Source: Dictyostelium discoideum (Eukaryota). Taken from it: a DNA stretch of 64,000 nt. Below the pieces are notes generated by a model. It was given only the letters and a program-made list of their open reading frames with translations. It was not told the origin of the DNA and made no database searches. Below are positions 25,918 to 30,573 of this stretch, piece by piece (the first letter of the stretch is position 1; each line of letters begins with the position of its first letter). A program made the position numbers and the translations under genes. The stretch spans positions 2,272,001 through 2,336,000 of the forward strand of contig CM000150.2 in assembly GCA_000004695.1 (NCBI GenBank), written 5' to 3'.

Positions 25918-28900
25918 TTAATCCTTATCAAACTTTGATTTCAAAGCCTCAAAAGAAGGATTTGATTTACATTTTGAAATTGGATATTTAGTATTACTTG
26001 TATTATTGTTGCTATTTTTATTATTATTAATACTGTTGGTATAATTAATAGCAATACCATTATTATTATTATTATTAATGCTGTTATTACTATTATTATT
26101 ATTATTATTATTATTATTATTATTATTATTATTATTATTATTATTATTATTATTATTATTATTATTATTATTATTATTATTATTATTATTATTATCTGTA
26201 GGTGTTGATGAAGAGATCTTTTCATTAATCATTGAAGCATAAAAAGAAGGAGCTAATGGGGGTGGTGGTAAACTAAATCCGCCAACACTATTACTGACAC
26301 TATTACTGACACTACGGTGTTGTTCTGATAATGAACTACCACTTGATAAAAATGAATCATCCCTATTATTGCTACTTTCAATTCCACTTGATAAATCAGC
26401 TGATGATGATGGTGATGATACTGATGAAAAAGTATTTCTTGAAGCATTACTATTATTTTTCATACTATTATTATTATTATTATTATTAGCACTGTTATTA
26501 TTGTTATTATTATCAGTGATTGATATTGGTACTGCTTTATTTCTAAATGCTGATAATCTTTTTGATTTTAAATTTGGATTTGGTTTATCAGGTACAATTC
26601 TTTCCCATTTAACTTGATGAGGTTGTTGATGATCATGAGTGGGTCTATTGTTATTATTTGATATTGGACTGGTTGAAGTTGAACCCATTGGACTAGTTGA
26701 GCCGACTGGACTTTGAGGAGCAGATAAAGTTGAAGGTGAAGATGAAGTTGAACTTGATCTAATATCATAGTCTGAATTGGTTGGGTTATCATCTTTTGAA
26801 ACTTCAACTAAATTCTTTAATTCCTCAGTTGGATGCATTGACATATCGATATTAATTTTATTTTCATTTAAGGAGACAGCAGTTGATGACTCATTATTAT
26901 TTGAACCACTAACTGTATCGATATCAATGTTTGATTCATGTTCATCAGAATTACCACCACTACCAACACCAACAACTCCTACACCACCAATACCAACGCT
27001 GCTACCACCTGTAAGTATTTGATAGATACCTTGATCTTGCATTTTCAATCTAAGATTTTCTAAATAAGTAATAATTTGTTGAAAAGATGGACGATCATCA
27101 GGGTTTGAAGTCCAACACATTGTAATGAGATCTCTAAACTCTGGTAAACAACTATCGGGTATTGGTGGTCTGAATGAGTCTTCCAATACCATTGAAATCC
27201 ATTGAATTTGAGCGAAATCTTTGTATGGTATTTGACGACTTATACATTCCCATAATACAAAAGCAAAACTATATACATCGGCTTGTTGAGAATAATCGGT
27301 TAAACCTTTCAACACTTCAACGGCCATATAACATGGTGTACCAACAGTTTTTGTCATACGATTATCGACAACTCTAGAGAGTCCAAAATCAGATATTCTA
27401 ATATTCCAATCTTGATCTATCAATAGGTTACCAGGTTTTAAATCTCTATGAATGATACCTAGTGAATGAAGATAATTCATACCTTTAGCTACTTGTAATG
27501 CTAAATGAACGATACGAGCATTTGATAGTGGACATATGTTGGCAGTAATGACACTATATAATGAACCACGTGAATAATAGTCACAAACCAAATACATTTT
27601 ACCAGGTTGAGCCGAACCACCAACACAATGAACGATATTATCATGACGAAGAACCGACATGATAGTTGCTTCACTATGAAATTCTCTTTCACTAAAACCC
27701 AACTCTTCCTCATTGAATTGTTTGACGGCGATTTCATAACCTTTCCATTTACCACGTTTGACAACACCACTAACACCACGACCAATCTCTTTGGTTAATT
27801 CTAAATCCGATTGAGAGATATACTTTAAAACACTGATTTCACCTTGTCTAACGAATTCTATTAAATATTGTAAAAATAATTTACCACCACCATTGACTAT
27901 TCTTTGTTTGTATTTATCGTGTCTAATTAGATGTGATAATATGTAAGAGATTGATTTTGATAGTGATGAAGTTGAATCACGATGAAGTAATTCTATGAAC
28001 TTATCGATATCATCTACACCCATATTCTCTACACATGTTGGATCATATTTACAAAGGTTTGCCAATGTATTAACTATAAAAGGTGTTTCAACTGATAAAC
28101 TATCAAATAATGATGAAACCAAATAGGGTATTATACCACTTTGAATTAGATGTTTCTTACATTGATCATTTGGTGAATTTGATATGATCATAAATGATCT
28201 AAATGCTTCTGATCTAACAGAACATTCATGACATATTATAAACTGTTTCAATAGGTTCAAGCCATTGCCACGACTAAAATGATCATGTATTTTCAATGAT
28301 GTAGTTGATACCAACATATTTGAAATGGTTAATGATAAGAAAAATACATAATCAGTTTCCTCTTTGAAAATTTGATTAAATTCATATCCATACTGTTTCA
28401 GATTAATCTCATTATTATTTGAAATTATATAATTAATAGTATTTGATTCCCATTGACAAAACATTGGTATTCCAAAATAACCACTCTTATCATGTGTTGG
28501 CGTTATCAAATCCAATATACCATTACTAATTAAAAATGTACACAATGATTCATTAACACAAAAATTTGAAAATGATTTAAAAATTAATACTTTTTTTGAA
28601 ATCTCTTGAAATTCTTTACAATATTCTAATAAATTTGATAATAATTTAATATTTGATTCTTTTTTTAAATCAACTTTAATAAATGATAAAATAAATAAAA
28701 AAAGTTAATTAAAAATTACTACTAATTAAAATTATTTATCATGATTTAAATAAACTTACAACTTGATGAAAGATTTGAAATAGTTTTTAATGTACAATTT
28801 ACAGTTATATTATCTTGAATTGATAATAAATAAATTAAAGTTTCTTTAATTGAATCAGAAATTAAATATTCATTCAATTCAAAACTAATTTCTGATACTC

Positions 28901-30573
28901 TTGATAAAAAGATTGCACATGATCTTGGACAATCTATAAAATCTGATCTTGCAATTAATGATATTACATCTATACCAACCTCTTTAAAAAATCGATTTAA
29001 AAATGGTTTATAACACGATAAAATACATAAACTACTTGCAACTAATTTTCTTAATTCCATAAAATTACTCCAATTATCTAATGAAACTAATTTAAATATA
29101 AAATCCATTCCAAATTCTTTTAAAACTCTTTCTTTATTTTTATCTAAATATAAAAAATAAAAAAAATTAATATTATTATTTTAATAAATTAATTAATTAA
29201 CTAATTTACTAATTATTATTATTATTATTATTATTATTATTATTATTATTATTATTATTATTATTATTATTATTATTATTATTATTATTATTATTTACCT
29301 TTTTCAATTAATTTTGCAAATATACCAATAATATGTATTTGAATTGTTGGATCAGGATAAAACATTAAATTCATTAAACCTTCAATACCAAATGAAAATA
29401 ATTTATCAATTGTTGAAGGTTTATTTGACATTAAAGTAATTAATTGAACAACCTCTTCAATCCATTCATTTGAGAATGCTAATTCCTTTAGATTTGGATT
29501 TAATTCGTCAATGATTGTACAATGAAATGGTGAACCACAAATTGGTGTATCATCAATTTTTATACTTATTGAATATTCGCCATAGATTATTGGTTGAAGT
29601 TTAAGTAATGAATAGTCGGATTTACGTTGTTCATAAGTAAAGGCCATTTTACGATCCTCCACTGATATCGAATCCTTTTTAATTACATCAATTTGAAAAT
29701 TTAATGATGTATTTACAATTAACATTCCCTTTGAATCAACTCTATATAATTTAATTTCATAAATGACACCTGATATACCTCTATATAATCCTTTACCAAC
29801 TGCAAAACATAATGCTGGACATTCTTCACCTTTCTTACTTGATAATACATGAATACGACCACCACCACTACCACTTAATATCTCATCCATATTACTCATA
29901 CTACTCATACTAAGATTTGTAAAATGTGGTAATTTCTCCATACTATTAGATTGAGTTTTCTTTGGTGGTACTAAAAATTCTGATGGTATCTCTTTCTCTA
30001 ATGCTACCATTTGTAATTCTGTTCCTTCATATATTTTATAATCTTTAACTAATCTATAACTTTGTAATAATTTTGAATATGCCTTGAAATTAAAAAAAAA
30101 AATAATAATAAAATAATTAGTATAAATACATATATAGGTTTGTTTAATTTATAAATCTATTGTTTTTAATAATAATAACAATAATAATAATAATAATAAT
30201 AATAATAATAATAATAATAATAATAATAATAATAATAATAATAATAATAATAATAATAATAATAATAATAATAATAATAATAATAATAATAATAATAATA
30301 ATAATAATAATAATAATAATAATAATAATAATAATATACTTTTGAAGTTTCTCTTGGGTTAATTTCATCAACCACTTTTAAATATAATTGTTGTCTTGCT
30401 GGTGGTATTTGAAAAAGATTGAATAAAAGTGTTTTAATCATCCATATTGATTGATTCGGATGAATTTCTAAAAACAGTTTATTATTACTATTATAATTTA
30501 TTAAAGTACCATTACTATTATTAGCACCATCTCCGCTTTGTTTCGCATTGTTTACATGAACCAACACTCTCAT
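25918..30573 (-). CDS. Multidomain TKL-group protein kinase: ubiquitin-like domain + filamin/ABP280 repeat + ARM-like region + kinase + S/N-rich tail. Exons (minus strand): 30573..30340, 30082..29299, 29143..28760, 28673..25918.
   Basis: The kinase exon has GRGVSGVV...AVK, HRDLKPGNLL, DFG and a TKL-like APE region. The upstream ORFs join in frame: GTATAT and GGTAAAT donors, AGTT|GTAAGT, and acceptors atttcaag, tatatttag and attaaag. Exon 2 has a filamin repeat (...GEYSISIKIDDTPICGSPFHCTI). Exon 1 has a UBL-like fold (MRVLVHVN...QQLYLK). Introns 1 and 2 contain (AAT)n and (ATT)n. Confidence is high for the kinase and moderate for attaching exon 1. Confidence 0.7.
29212..29295. repeat. (ATT)n microsatellite inside intron 2 of the kinase gene
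   Basis: Pure att repeats directly abutting the GGTAAAT donor. Confidence 0.9.
30168..30335. repeat. (AAT)n microsatellite, ~56 units, inside intron 1 of the kinase gene
   Basis: Uninterrupted aat repeats visible in the sequence. Spurious poly-I/poly-Y ORFs arise on both strands. Confidence 0.95.

Follow-up and report, generated by a model that had tools for sequence, protein, structure and literature searches.

The Dictyostelium discoideum kinase gene DDB0229956: predicted ubiquitin-like, filamin and armadillo regions preceding a TKL-group catalytic domain, and two microsatellite-rich introns

In this study, we report the in silico analysis of a gene located in a stretch of 64,000 nucleotides of the D. 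discoideum genome (contig CM000150.2, positions 2,272,001 to 2,336,000; hereafter, the window). It is very probable that the region represents the entire coding sequence of DDB0229956, a TKL-group kinase with a ubiquitin-like domain (UBL), a filamin repeat and an armadillo (ARM) region, and that the repeat arrays in its introns are neutral. The gene is already known and has been catalogued since 2006, when it was assigned to the TKL group of the D. discoideum kinome as "TKL-Unique" and scored active (Goldberg et al. 2006, PLoS Genet 2:e38; PMC1420674), and the novelty implied by the initial annotation was therefore overstated. The listing in that paper gives the catalytic motifs IAVK, HRDLKPGN and DFG, which are those found here; in its kinome tree the kinase domain stands outside the ROCO cluster and is placed in neither the Raf nor the MLK family, and the legend of its domain figure lists a filamin repeat. 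Literature searches, also under alternative gene names, found no functional study of DDB0229956. It must be noted that the present results carry little weight beyond annotation and that their additions are modest: evidence is given for the UBL and the armadillo region, and both are located on the DDB0229956 sequence, the "unique" kinase has one-to-one orthologues in dictyostelids as well as filamin-ARM-kinase relatives in marine protists, and the intronic microsatellites would act as labile filler in ancient introns. As a single-copy gene of a haploid, genetically tractable organism, DDB0229956 may be a reasonable entry point for the control of a Raf-like kinase by UBL and filamin modules.

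The joining of four ORF segments through GT..AG junctions into one protein, as originally proposed, was borne out by a stop-free coding sequence and by colinearity with the orthologues. The spliced coding sequence of 4158 nt (234 + 784 + 384 + 2756) corresponds to 1385 codons plus the stop, with 0 internal stops, and in-frame stops lie upstream of Met1. Each intron has a length of 2 mod 3, and a stop is met on read-through of any one of them. Since the gap-free alignment with full-length orthologues spans all three junctions, the joining of the ORFs is not a matter of chance. Table S2 of PMC1420674 prints DDB0229956, and the N-terminal ~420 aa given there, which begin at Met1 and extend past junctions 1 and 2, agree with the spliced model without any difference. 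The basis of the splice junctions is comparative and structural, together with the curated database model. The exact 1385-aa protein had no match in the protein collection searched, which seems to lack D. discoideum proteins. The annotation and organization of the gene are provided in Table 1.

Table 1. Features of the DDB0229956 gene and of its predicted product (positions in the window).
Feature	Position	Strand	Remarks
Whole coding region of DDB0229956, ATG to TAA	25918..30573	-	4 exons, 3 introns, 1385 aa; colinear with orthologues; 30573 is the A of ATG, 25918 the last base of TAA
Exon 1, aa 1-78	30340..30573	-	234 nt; first half of the UBL
Intron 1, phase 0	30083..30339	-	257 nt, GTATAT..AAG, 4% GC
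Exon 2, aa 79-339 + 1 base	29299..30082	-	784 nt; remainder of the UBL, linker, filamin repeat, first ARM repeats
Intron 2, phase 1	29144..29298	-	155 nt, GTAAAT..TAG, 3% GC
Exon 3	28760..29143	-	384 nt; ARM repeats
Intron 3, phase 1	28674..28759	-	86 nt, GTAAGT..AAG, 10% GC
Exon 4	25918..28673	-	2756 nt; C-terminal ARM repeats, kinase domain, disordered Asn/Ser-rich tail, stop codon
Predicted ubiquitin-like (beta-grasp) domain, aa 1-110	29987..30573	-	coding span including intron 1
Putative single filamin/ABP280-type Ig repeat, aa 155-268	29513..29854	-	ends in YGEYSISIKIDDTPICGSPF motif
Predicted armadillo-type helical repeat region, aa 270-745	27841..29509	-	coding span including introns 2 and 3
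Protein kinase catalytic domain, TKL group, aa 758-1004	27064..27804	-	Pfam, motifs
Low-complexity C-terminal tail, aa 1023-1385	25921..27009	-	26% Asn, 20% Ser
Tail motif HPTEELKNLV	26806-26835	-	conserved among orthologues
Tail motif KWERIVPDKP	26581-26610	-	conserved among orthologues
Tail motif KRLSAFR	26542-26562	-	conserved among orthologues
Tail motif LPPPP	26257-26271	-	conserved among orthologues
Coding poly-Asn34 in tail	26092-26193	-
Tail motif FEALKSKFD	25927-25953	-	conserved among orthologues

The order of domains originally read from the sequence (UBL, one filamin repeat, ARM-like region and TKL kinase) was upheld by Pfam, by ortholog profiles and by AF2 models, the latter obtained from ortholog-only alignment rows and from the contiguous exon-4 product. 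In the window protein itself, Pfam placed the kinase above its cutoff and the ubiquitin and Filamin families below theirs. The kinase matches covered aa 758-1004, with PK_Tyr_Ser-Thr at E=3e-59 and 200.8 bits (cutoff 23.1) and Pkinase at 190 bits (cutoff 31.7). The motifs GRGVSG (765-770), IAVK (782-785), HRDLKPGN (876-883) and DFG (896-898) were found, and residues K785, E802 and N813 did not vary among the aligned sequences. Conservation of the HRD-DFG columns extended to every orthologue covering them (sequence P0004 is gapped there), and AVE stands in place of APE in the window protein and in most orthologues. By sequence, the closest kinases in the PDB were CTR1, ZAK/MLT, DLK, TAK1, B-Raf, RIPK1 and MLK4, the CTR1 kinase domain having 37-38% identity (E=1e-47); the closest folds were those of CTR1 and A/B/C-Raf. 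Sequence comparison thus argues very strongly for the assignment to the TKL group, and with its catalytic motifs intact the kinase is predicted to be catalytically competent.

With respect to the filamin repeat, Pfam Filamin (PF00630) reached only E=1.4e-3 and 19.9 bits in the window protein, below the cutoff of 26.9, while all six orthologues matched (6/6, best E=2e-8), that of D. purpureum above the cutoff with 29.0 bits. Against the PDB, the filamin ortholog profile retrieved filamin A (8e-12), gelation factor and, over its full length (positions 16-117), the TRIM45 filamin domain. The ortholog profiles therefore support the identification of aa 155-268 as a filamin/ABP280 repeat. For the region that follows, Pfam Arm gave no match in the window protein itself; in the orthologues, Arm was matched in 5/6 and ARM_ARMC5 in 4/6. 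The corresponding ortholog profile matched Vac8 and designed ARM proteins (E~1e-12), and also plakoglobin and importin-alpha, and AF2 modelled the region as a solenoid made up of helices throughout, with pLDDT values of 80-93 over approximately aa 570-750. Profiles and model together support a predicted armadillo solenoid at aa 270-745.

With respect to the UBL, Pfam ubiquitin gave E=0.018 and 15.2 bits in the window protein (cutoff 25.4) and a weak match in 3/6 orthologues. The ortholog UBL profile matched exclusively ubiquitin in the PDB, with single-copy E-values of 1e-3 to 0.06, and the motif IPPARQQL can be set beside IPPDQQRL of ubiquitin. The AF2 model (pLDDT 63) has the strand-strand-helix-strand-helix-strand order of a beta-grasp, and Foldseek retrieved ubiquitin for all of its top 50 PDB matches (probability 0.94-0.99, E ~0.01, target-normalised TM mostly 0.54-0.66). 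Exon 1 carries strand 1, a low-complexity loop, strand 2, helix 1 and strand 3; the inserts consist of ~22 low-complexity aa between strands 1 and 2 and of 14 aa after strand 3. The domain has no C-terminal Gly-Gly and runs straight into ...ALEKEIPSEFLVPP..., and from its sequence it is an integral, non-conjugatable domain and not a ubiquitin-like modifier. Profiles and models give moderate confidence in the identification of this putative N-terminal ubiquitin-like domain.

These identifications must be weighed against other readings of the same protein. It is hardly credible that exon 1, with its half of the UBL, is a separate small gene, or that translation begins at an internal Met, so that there would be no four-domain protein. 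By the standards of the D. discoideum genome intron 1 is long, and a repeat comes directly after its 5' splice site GTATAT; however, the reading frame of exon 1 stays open up to the GT and covers only a portion of the predicted beta-grasp, the last strand of which is found in exon 2, and exon 1 cannot be a separate gene because intron 1 splits the ubiquitin-like fold. In addition, the alignment has no gap at the exon 1/exon 2 junction, the sequence, position and phase of which are kept in six other species, the curated DDB0229956 sequence contains exon 1, and the start, MRVL in D. discoideum, is MRV(L/K) in all full-length orthologues. Both scenarios, which the initial annotation had named as fatal to its own gene model, consequently fail. 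A different possibility is that the N-terminal beta-grasp is a Ras/GTPase-binding domain (RBD/RA-type) as in Raf kinases, with regulation by small GTPases. Raf kinases bear an N-terminal beta-grasp RBD, the kinase domain found here is closest to those of CTR1 and the Raf kinases, and the functional classes of beta-grasp are not separable by fold alone. We consider it unlikely nevertheless, given that the sequence points to ubiquitin in particular: in hhalign, the N-terminal profile gave 77% probability against ubiquitin (E=2e-5, 31% identity over 58 columns) and 0.8% against a Raf-1 RBD sequence, every profile and top-50 fold match in the PDB was to ubiquitin, and Pfam found no C1 domain in the window protein. 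Finally, a pseudokinase serving only as a scaffold would be compatible with the replacement of APE by AVE and with the large non-catalytic region, but the kinase retains an intact set of catalytic elements (glycine loop, VAIK lysine, alpha-C glutamate, HRD, catalytic Asn, DFG) that do not vary among the orthologues, and the product was scored active in PMC1420674, which makes this reading very improbable.

The four-domain kinase shares traits with several known systems. Raf/CTR1-type TKL kinases (B-Raf, A. thaliana CTR1) provide the closest solved kinase domains and likewise have a C-terminal kinase after a long N-terminal regulatory region that opens with a beta-grasp. In contrast to Raf, DDB0229956 has neither a Ras-binding-domain signature nor C1, and in their place carries a filamin repeat and an ARM solenoid; without the N-terminal RBD and C1 that define the Raf family, it is not a member of it. 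LRRK2 and the ROCO kinases, which are expanded in Dictyostelium, are also TKL-group kinases with N-terminal armadillo repeats as an interaction platform, whereas DDB0229956 lacks the Roc-COR GTPase, LRR, ankyrin and WD40 regions. TRIM45 and TRIM71/LIN-41 are, like DDB0229956, single-filamin-repeat proteins, and both the TRIM45 filamin domain and the repeats of Dictyostelium gelation factor (ddFLN) align over the full length, including the G-x-Y...GSPF end motif. Unlike in TRIM45, TRIM71/LIN-41 and ddFLN, the repeat is here a single one inside a kinase, with no actin-binding domain, RING/B-box or NHL. The ULD of IKK-beta/TBK1 and the N-terminal UBL of Parkin are likewise non-conjugatable ubiquitin-fold domains within signalling enzymes, and such integral UBLs typically regulate activity or recruit partners. 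The UBL of DDB0229956 differs from the IKK ULD in being N-terminal and distant from the kinase domain; the kinase group is also another one, and the UBL has two insertions.

The product would be a cytosolic, catalytically competent TKL-group kinase of serine/threonine type, 1385 aa long, with, from N to C terminus, a non-conjugatable UBL, a filamin-type Ig repeat, an ARM solenoid, a Raf/CTR1-like kinase and a disordered Asn/Ser-rich tail. Judging from the same domain types elsewhere, from which we infer the roles of the three non-catalytic modules, the UBL may be a regulatory or partner-recruiting beta-grasp module, and the filamin repeat may act by beta-strand addition to a partner peptide or to another filamin repeat, possibly putting the kinase at the cortical actin network. 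The ARM solenoid is predicted to continue directly into the kinase N-lobe, and could be a docking or autoinhibitory platform beside the catalytic domain.

The UBL-filamin-ARM-kinase architecture was found in every dictyostelid orthologue recovered. An exhaustive HMMER search, combined with Pfam and BLASTP, was used for relatives outside dictyostelids, and the filamin-ARM-kinase core was also detected in one transcript of a marine protist (MMETSP) and in two contigs of environmental origin, a scaffold from a TARA Oceans marine metagenome and an ENA contig (one HSP of 805 columns at E=6e-64). The architecture, initially described as rare, does define one single-copy family, but it is present throughout the dictyostelid orthologues and its core extends to marine protists. 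By sequence comparison, DDB0229956 has one-to-one orthologues across Dictyostelia. With the UBL profile, no UBL was detected in P0190, the MMETSP relative; short UBL matches of 9-12 bits (...TIWMIKILIF...GFDP...SLYL) occur in the ORFs immediately preceding the two environmental genes. By eye, the stretch upstream of the filamin repeat in P0190 is beta-grasp-like. We only tentatively suggest that the UBL-filamin-ARM-TKL kinases might form an ancient, unrecognised family of Dictyostelia and AT-rich marine protists, instead of a kinase "unique" to Dictyostelium, with the UBL as a conserved regulatory input, a proposal that we regard as possible and still somewhat doubtful.

The introns present the features of dictyostelid spliceosomal introns: they are GT..AG, short, very AT-rich and conserved in position among orthologues. 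Exact-match splice mapping in the orthologue genomes revealed that the position and phase of intron 1 are common to D. firmibasis, D. purpureum, P. violaceum, T. lacteum, C. fasciculata and A. subglobosum, and that introns 2 and 3 are found in 5/6 orthologues; T. lacteum has neither, and its exons continue uninterrupted across the corresponding junction sequences. Two of the three introns are indeed microsatellite-rich, with a repeat share of 66% in intron 1 and 54% in intron 2. In intron 1, TRF detected an array of period 3 (56.7 copies, 98% matches, 30167-30336, 170/257 nt), which is (ATT)~57 on the sense strand with a longest perfect stretch of 157 nt; in intron 2, it detected 28 perfect trinucleotide copies (29212-29295, 84/155 nt), (AAT)n on the sense strand; and in intron 3 it found no microsatellite. 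The orthologous introns are 63-123 nt long and do not contain the D. discoideum arrays, except for a complementary motif in D. firmibasis intron 2; the intron 1 array has no counterpart in any of the 6 orthologues. The initial annotation proposed that the repeats could make splicing or intron length polymorphic; between species, according to this comparison, the arrays of introns 1 and 2 change readily and show no conservation.

Such arrays are typical of the D. discoideum genome and no peculiarity of the kinase gene: in a neighbouring DOCK gene within the window, (ATT)n accounts for 76% of a 205-nt intron, and, according to PMC3188802, simple repeats make up 11% of the genome, with 1,436 arrays >100 bp. 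A function for the intronic microsatellites, their length tuning splicing efficiency or expression with adaptive variation among strains, would agree with the large share of the two introns that they take up, with the position of the intron 1 array against a non-consensus 5' splice site, and with the variation of coding-region triplet arrays among D. discoideum strains, as stated in PMC3460934. This is nonetheless quite improbable, considering the genome-wide nature of the repeats, the similar intron of the DOCK gene, the unusually low microsatellite mutation rate reported for D. discoideum (McConnell et al. 2007, as cited in PMC6644851), and the lack of the arrays at the same introns in D. 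purpureum and in the more distantly related species. D. purpureum lacks the arrays, and D. firmibasis has none in intron 1 and carries the complementary motif in intron 2; the arrays therefore resemble neutral filler, and their non-conservation indicates that (ATT)n and (AAT)n are, in all likelihood, slippage expansions that are neutral and specific to the lineage. They would occupy the unconstrained spacer of two ancient introns, with no sequence-specific role. In the repeat-free 3' part of intron 1, a TACTAAT sequence was noticed by eye as a candidate branch-point-like motif.

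The frame of DDB0229956 lay on the minus strand between an ATG at 30573, with in-frame stops upstream of Met1, and a TAA whose last base is 25918. It was interrupted by three GT..AG introns, and the spliced coding sequence consisted of 4158 nt (1385 codons) with no internal stop. The coordinates of the initial annotation, which had joined four segments through GT..AG junctions into a protein of about 1385 amino acids, were thus exact. Introns 1, 2, and 3 were 257, 155, and 86 nt in length, with a G+C content of 3–10%, that of the window being 23.6% and dictyostelid-like. Each intron length was 2 mod 3, and unspliced read-through led to a stop in every case. 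From Met1 across junctions 1 and 2, the spliced model matched the sequence that the Dictyostelium kinome paper prints in its Table S2 (Goldberg et al., 2006; PMC1420674). Therefore, the gene is the catalogued model DDB0229956, which that table assigns to the TKL group, TKL-Unique, as active, with the motifs IAVK, HRDLKPGN, and DFG. The legend of the domain figure of the same paper names a filamin repeat. The gene was thus already known, and both the observation and its domain interpretation are confirmed as correct; no study of DDB0229956 was found in a literature search.

Features of the window and of related loci
Feature	Location	Strand	Description
DDB0229956 exons	30573-30340, 30082-29299, 29143-28760, 28673-25918	minus	
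DDB0229956 C-terminal tail	25921-27009	minus	last 363 residues, Asn/Ser-rich, low-complexity
Intron 1 array	30167-30336		(ATT)n on sense strand; period 3, 56.7 copies, 98% matches (Tandem Repeats Finder)
Intron 2 array	29212-29295		(AAT)n on sense strand; 28 perfect copies (Tandem Repeats Finder)
5' intergenic region of DDB0229956	30753-31073		poly-T tracts >100 nt; 43-nt unit x2.5 at 30966-31073
3' intergenic region of DDB0229956	25757-25805		A49 tract
DOCK-family GEF intron	57357-57153	minus	GTAAGT..AG, 205 nt, 76% pure (ATT)n; 27 kb from DDB0229956
DOCK gene ORFs	52197-57032, 57334-58890		1611-aa ORF with DOCK-C2 and DHR-2 domains; upstream exon
VPS13-family ORF	39208-51954	plus	4249 codons; VPS13_N, _M, _VAB, _C
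VPS13 poly-Asn and poly-Gln arrays	42883-42952, 45622-45699		coding
zf-UBP and UCH/USP ORFs	15976-18948, 19296-22598	plus	zf-UBP finger at extreme end of first, UCH/USP protease in second
tRNA-Asp (GTC)	6096-6168	plus	ARAGORN, Rfam
D. purpureum annotated "intron 5"	L001 9482-9565		84 nt, multiple of 3, 46% GC, CAA/CAG codons
P. violaceum model "intron 2"	L004 3422-3516		95 nt, 41% GC
Filamin-ARM-kinase gene, TARA Oceans scaffold	L006 1421-2400		GC of scaffold ~26-27%
Filamin-ARM-kinase gene, ENA contig	L008 4092-5300		GC of contig ~26-27%

The initial annotation had itself raised two other readings, namely that exon 1, with the ubiquitin-like domain (UBL), belongs to a separate gene and that the protein starts at an internal Met. 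Full-length orthologues with 97% query coverage were found in D. purpureum (77% identity), P. violaceum, T. lacteum, C. fasciculata, and A. subglobosum, as well as in two EukProt species, and the D. firmibasis orthologue showed 84.6% identity. Their alignment was conserved and without gaps at the junctions RETSK/AYSKL, LIEK/DKNKER, and NLSSS/FDLKKE. When the exons of six orthologues were placed on their genomic loci by exact matching, all six shared the position and phase (0) of intron 1, while introns 2 and 3 (phase 1) were common to five and missing in T. lacteum. In this last species both junction sequences fall within continuous exons, so that these two joins are confirmed in the genomic DNA itself. 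In addition, intron 1 cuts the UBL fold predicted by AF2, exon 1 encoding strands 1–3 and helix 1 and exon 2 the last strand, so that exon 1 should not be able to encode a free-standing domain. Given these independent arguments from colinear orthologues, common intron positions and a split fold, both a separate exon 1 gene and an internal start are very unlikely, and the gene model of DDB0229956 appears to be real.

One further intron, in exon 4 (about 28150, minus strand, codons ...ISNSPN/DQCKK...), was missing in DDB0229956, T. lacteum, and D. firmibasis and present in the orthologues of D. purpureum, P. violaceum, C. fasciculata, and A. subglobosum. This absence fits the loss of introns distant from the 5' end that has been reported for D. 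discoideum genes. Among the orthologue gene models, the annotated "intron 5" of D. purpureum looks like a poly-Gln coding stretch spliced out in error, and "intron 2" of P. violaceum is similarly doubtful.

The domain search supported all four modules through Pfam, orthologue profiles and AF2. The kinase call was unambiguous (Pfam E=3e-59): all the catalytic motifs were present and conserved in every orthologue covering them, and the catalytic loop HRDLKPGN was of the Ser/Thr type. The closest solved kinases by sequence (CTR1, ZAK, DLK, TAK1, B-Raf, RIPK1, and MLK4) and by fold (CTR1 and Raf kinases) all belonged to the TKL group. The filamin repeat of DDB0229956 alone scored 19.9 bits, below the Pfam cutoff of 26.9, whereas it was matched in 6/6 orthologues, and the orthologue profile matched filamin A (8e-12), the Dictyostelium gelation factor and, over its full length, the filamin domain of TRIM45. 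The ARM region gave no Pfam match in the protein itself; in the orthologues Arm (5/6) and ARM_ARMC5 (4/6) were detected, and their profile matched Vac8 and designed armadillo proteins (E ~1e-12). In the AF2 model, the exon 4 part of this region formed a helical solenoid running directly into the kinase.

The UBL was the weakest domain call, with 15.2 bits in Pfam against a cutoff of 25.4. Ubiquitin was the sole PDB match of its profile. In hhalign, ubiquitin gave a probability of 77% (E=2e-5; 58 columns at 31% identity, in which IPPARQQL pairs with IPPDQQRL), and an approximate Raf RBD sequence one of 0.8%. The AF2 model (pLDDT 63) had the element order of a beta-grasp, its best 50 PDB matches all being ubiquitin. 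Two inserts interrupt the domain, one of low complexity that separates strands 1 and 2 and one of 14 residues after strand 3. Since it carries no terminal Gly-Gly, it would be an integral UBL rather than a modifier. At the other end of the protein, the tail kept HPTEELKNLV, KWE..PDKP..KRLSAFR, LPPPP, and the C-terminal FEALKSKF across Dictyostelia; these motifs may be docking or phosphorylation sites, and KRLS presumably fits a basophilic kinase consensus.

The kinase domain is Raf/CTR1-like and, judged by its motifs, predicted to be catalytically competent, with three protein-interaction modules N-terminal to it. The adjoining ARM solenoid could provide a docking or autoinhibitory surface (compare LRRK2); the filamin Ig repeat would bind a partner via strand addition and possibly tie the kinase to the actin cortex; and the UBL might be a regulatory or recruiting module comparable to those of Parkin and the IKK/TBK1 ULD.

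With the non-kinase N-terminal module as query, an exhaustive HMMER search among 1.84 billion representative proteins returned a dictyostelid cluster, then a sharp drop, beneath which a handful of proteins matched colinearly over the filamin repeat and the ARM region. Three of these also had a TKL kinase: a marine protist transcript from MMETSP (complete ORF, 1659 aa) and genes from a TARA Oceans scaffold and an environmental contig. BLASTP aligned amino acids 228–1008 of DDB0229956 with the TARA protein in a single 805-column HSP (27% identity, E=6e-64). Both environmental genes were called in prokaryotic style with the 5' end cut short; the filamin profile also matched the frame ahead of the called ATG (E about 1e-14 to 3e-15), and the ORF before that contained a short UBL-like element (TIWMIKILIF...GFDP...SLYL / SIWMVKILLF, 9–12 bits). 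It is only suggested that the UBL is as old as the filamin-ARM-kinase core. The domain combination, first described as rare, defines one family, single-copy in each dictyostelid where found. No member was found by this search in animals, fungi or plants, and the family is not confined to Dictyostelium.

That two of the three introns consist largely of (AAT)n or (ATT)n was borne out by Tandem Repeats Finder, the arrays making up 66% of intron 1 and 54% of intron 2; no tandem array was detected in intron 3. By eye, intron 1 is laid out as 5' splice site, array and a repeat-free 3' segment with a putative branch-point-like TACTAAT. The window contained 25 perfect trinucleotide arrays of at least 8 units, and its long (AAT)n arrays were mostly coding poly-Asn, one of them in the DDB0229956 tail. 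A comparable intron was found in the DOCK gene, where the upstream exon joins in frame over it (...LKINE/DLLSGW...). In D. discoideum, 11% of the genome consists of simple repeats, with 1,436 arrays >100 bp vs. 54 in D. purpureum, and introns average 146 nt (PMC3188802). The orthologous introns measured 63–123 nt, with no array at either site in D. purpureum; in D. firmibasis, intron 1 had a poly-T run and intron 2 the complementary motif (ATT)n, not (AAT)n. The microsatellite introns are genuine, yet nothing unusual in this genome; they are most simply read as two ancient introns whose unconstrained part has expanded by neutral slippage. Strains may plausibly differ in array length; for the microsatellites of D. 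discoideum, an unusually low mutation rate has been reported (McConnell et al., 2007, as cited in PMC6644851).

Elsewhere in the window, a VPS13-family lipid-transfer protein was encoded in a single open frame, the zf-UBP and UCH/USP ORFs are probably one deubiquitinase gene with an intron between them, and the tRNA-Asp was the sole RNA gene that ARAGORN and Rfam detected. The sequence flanking DDB0229956 was typical of AT-rich dictyostelid intergenic regions.
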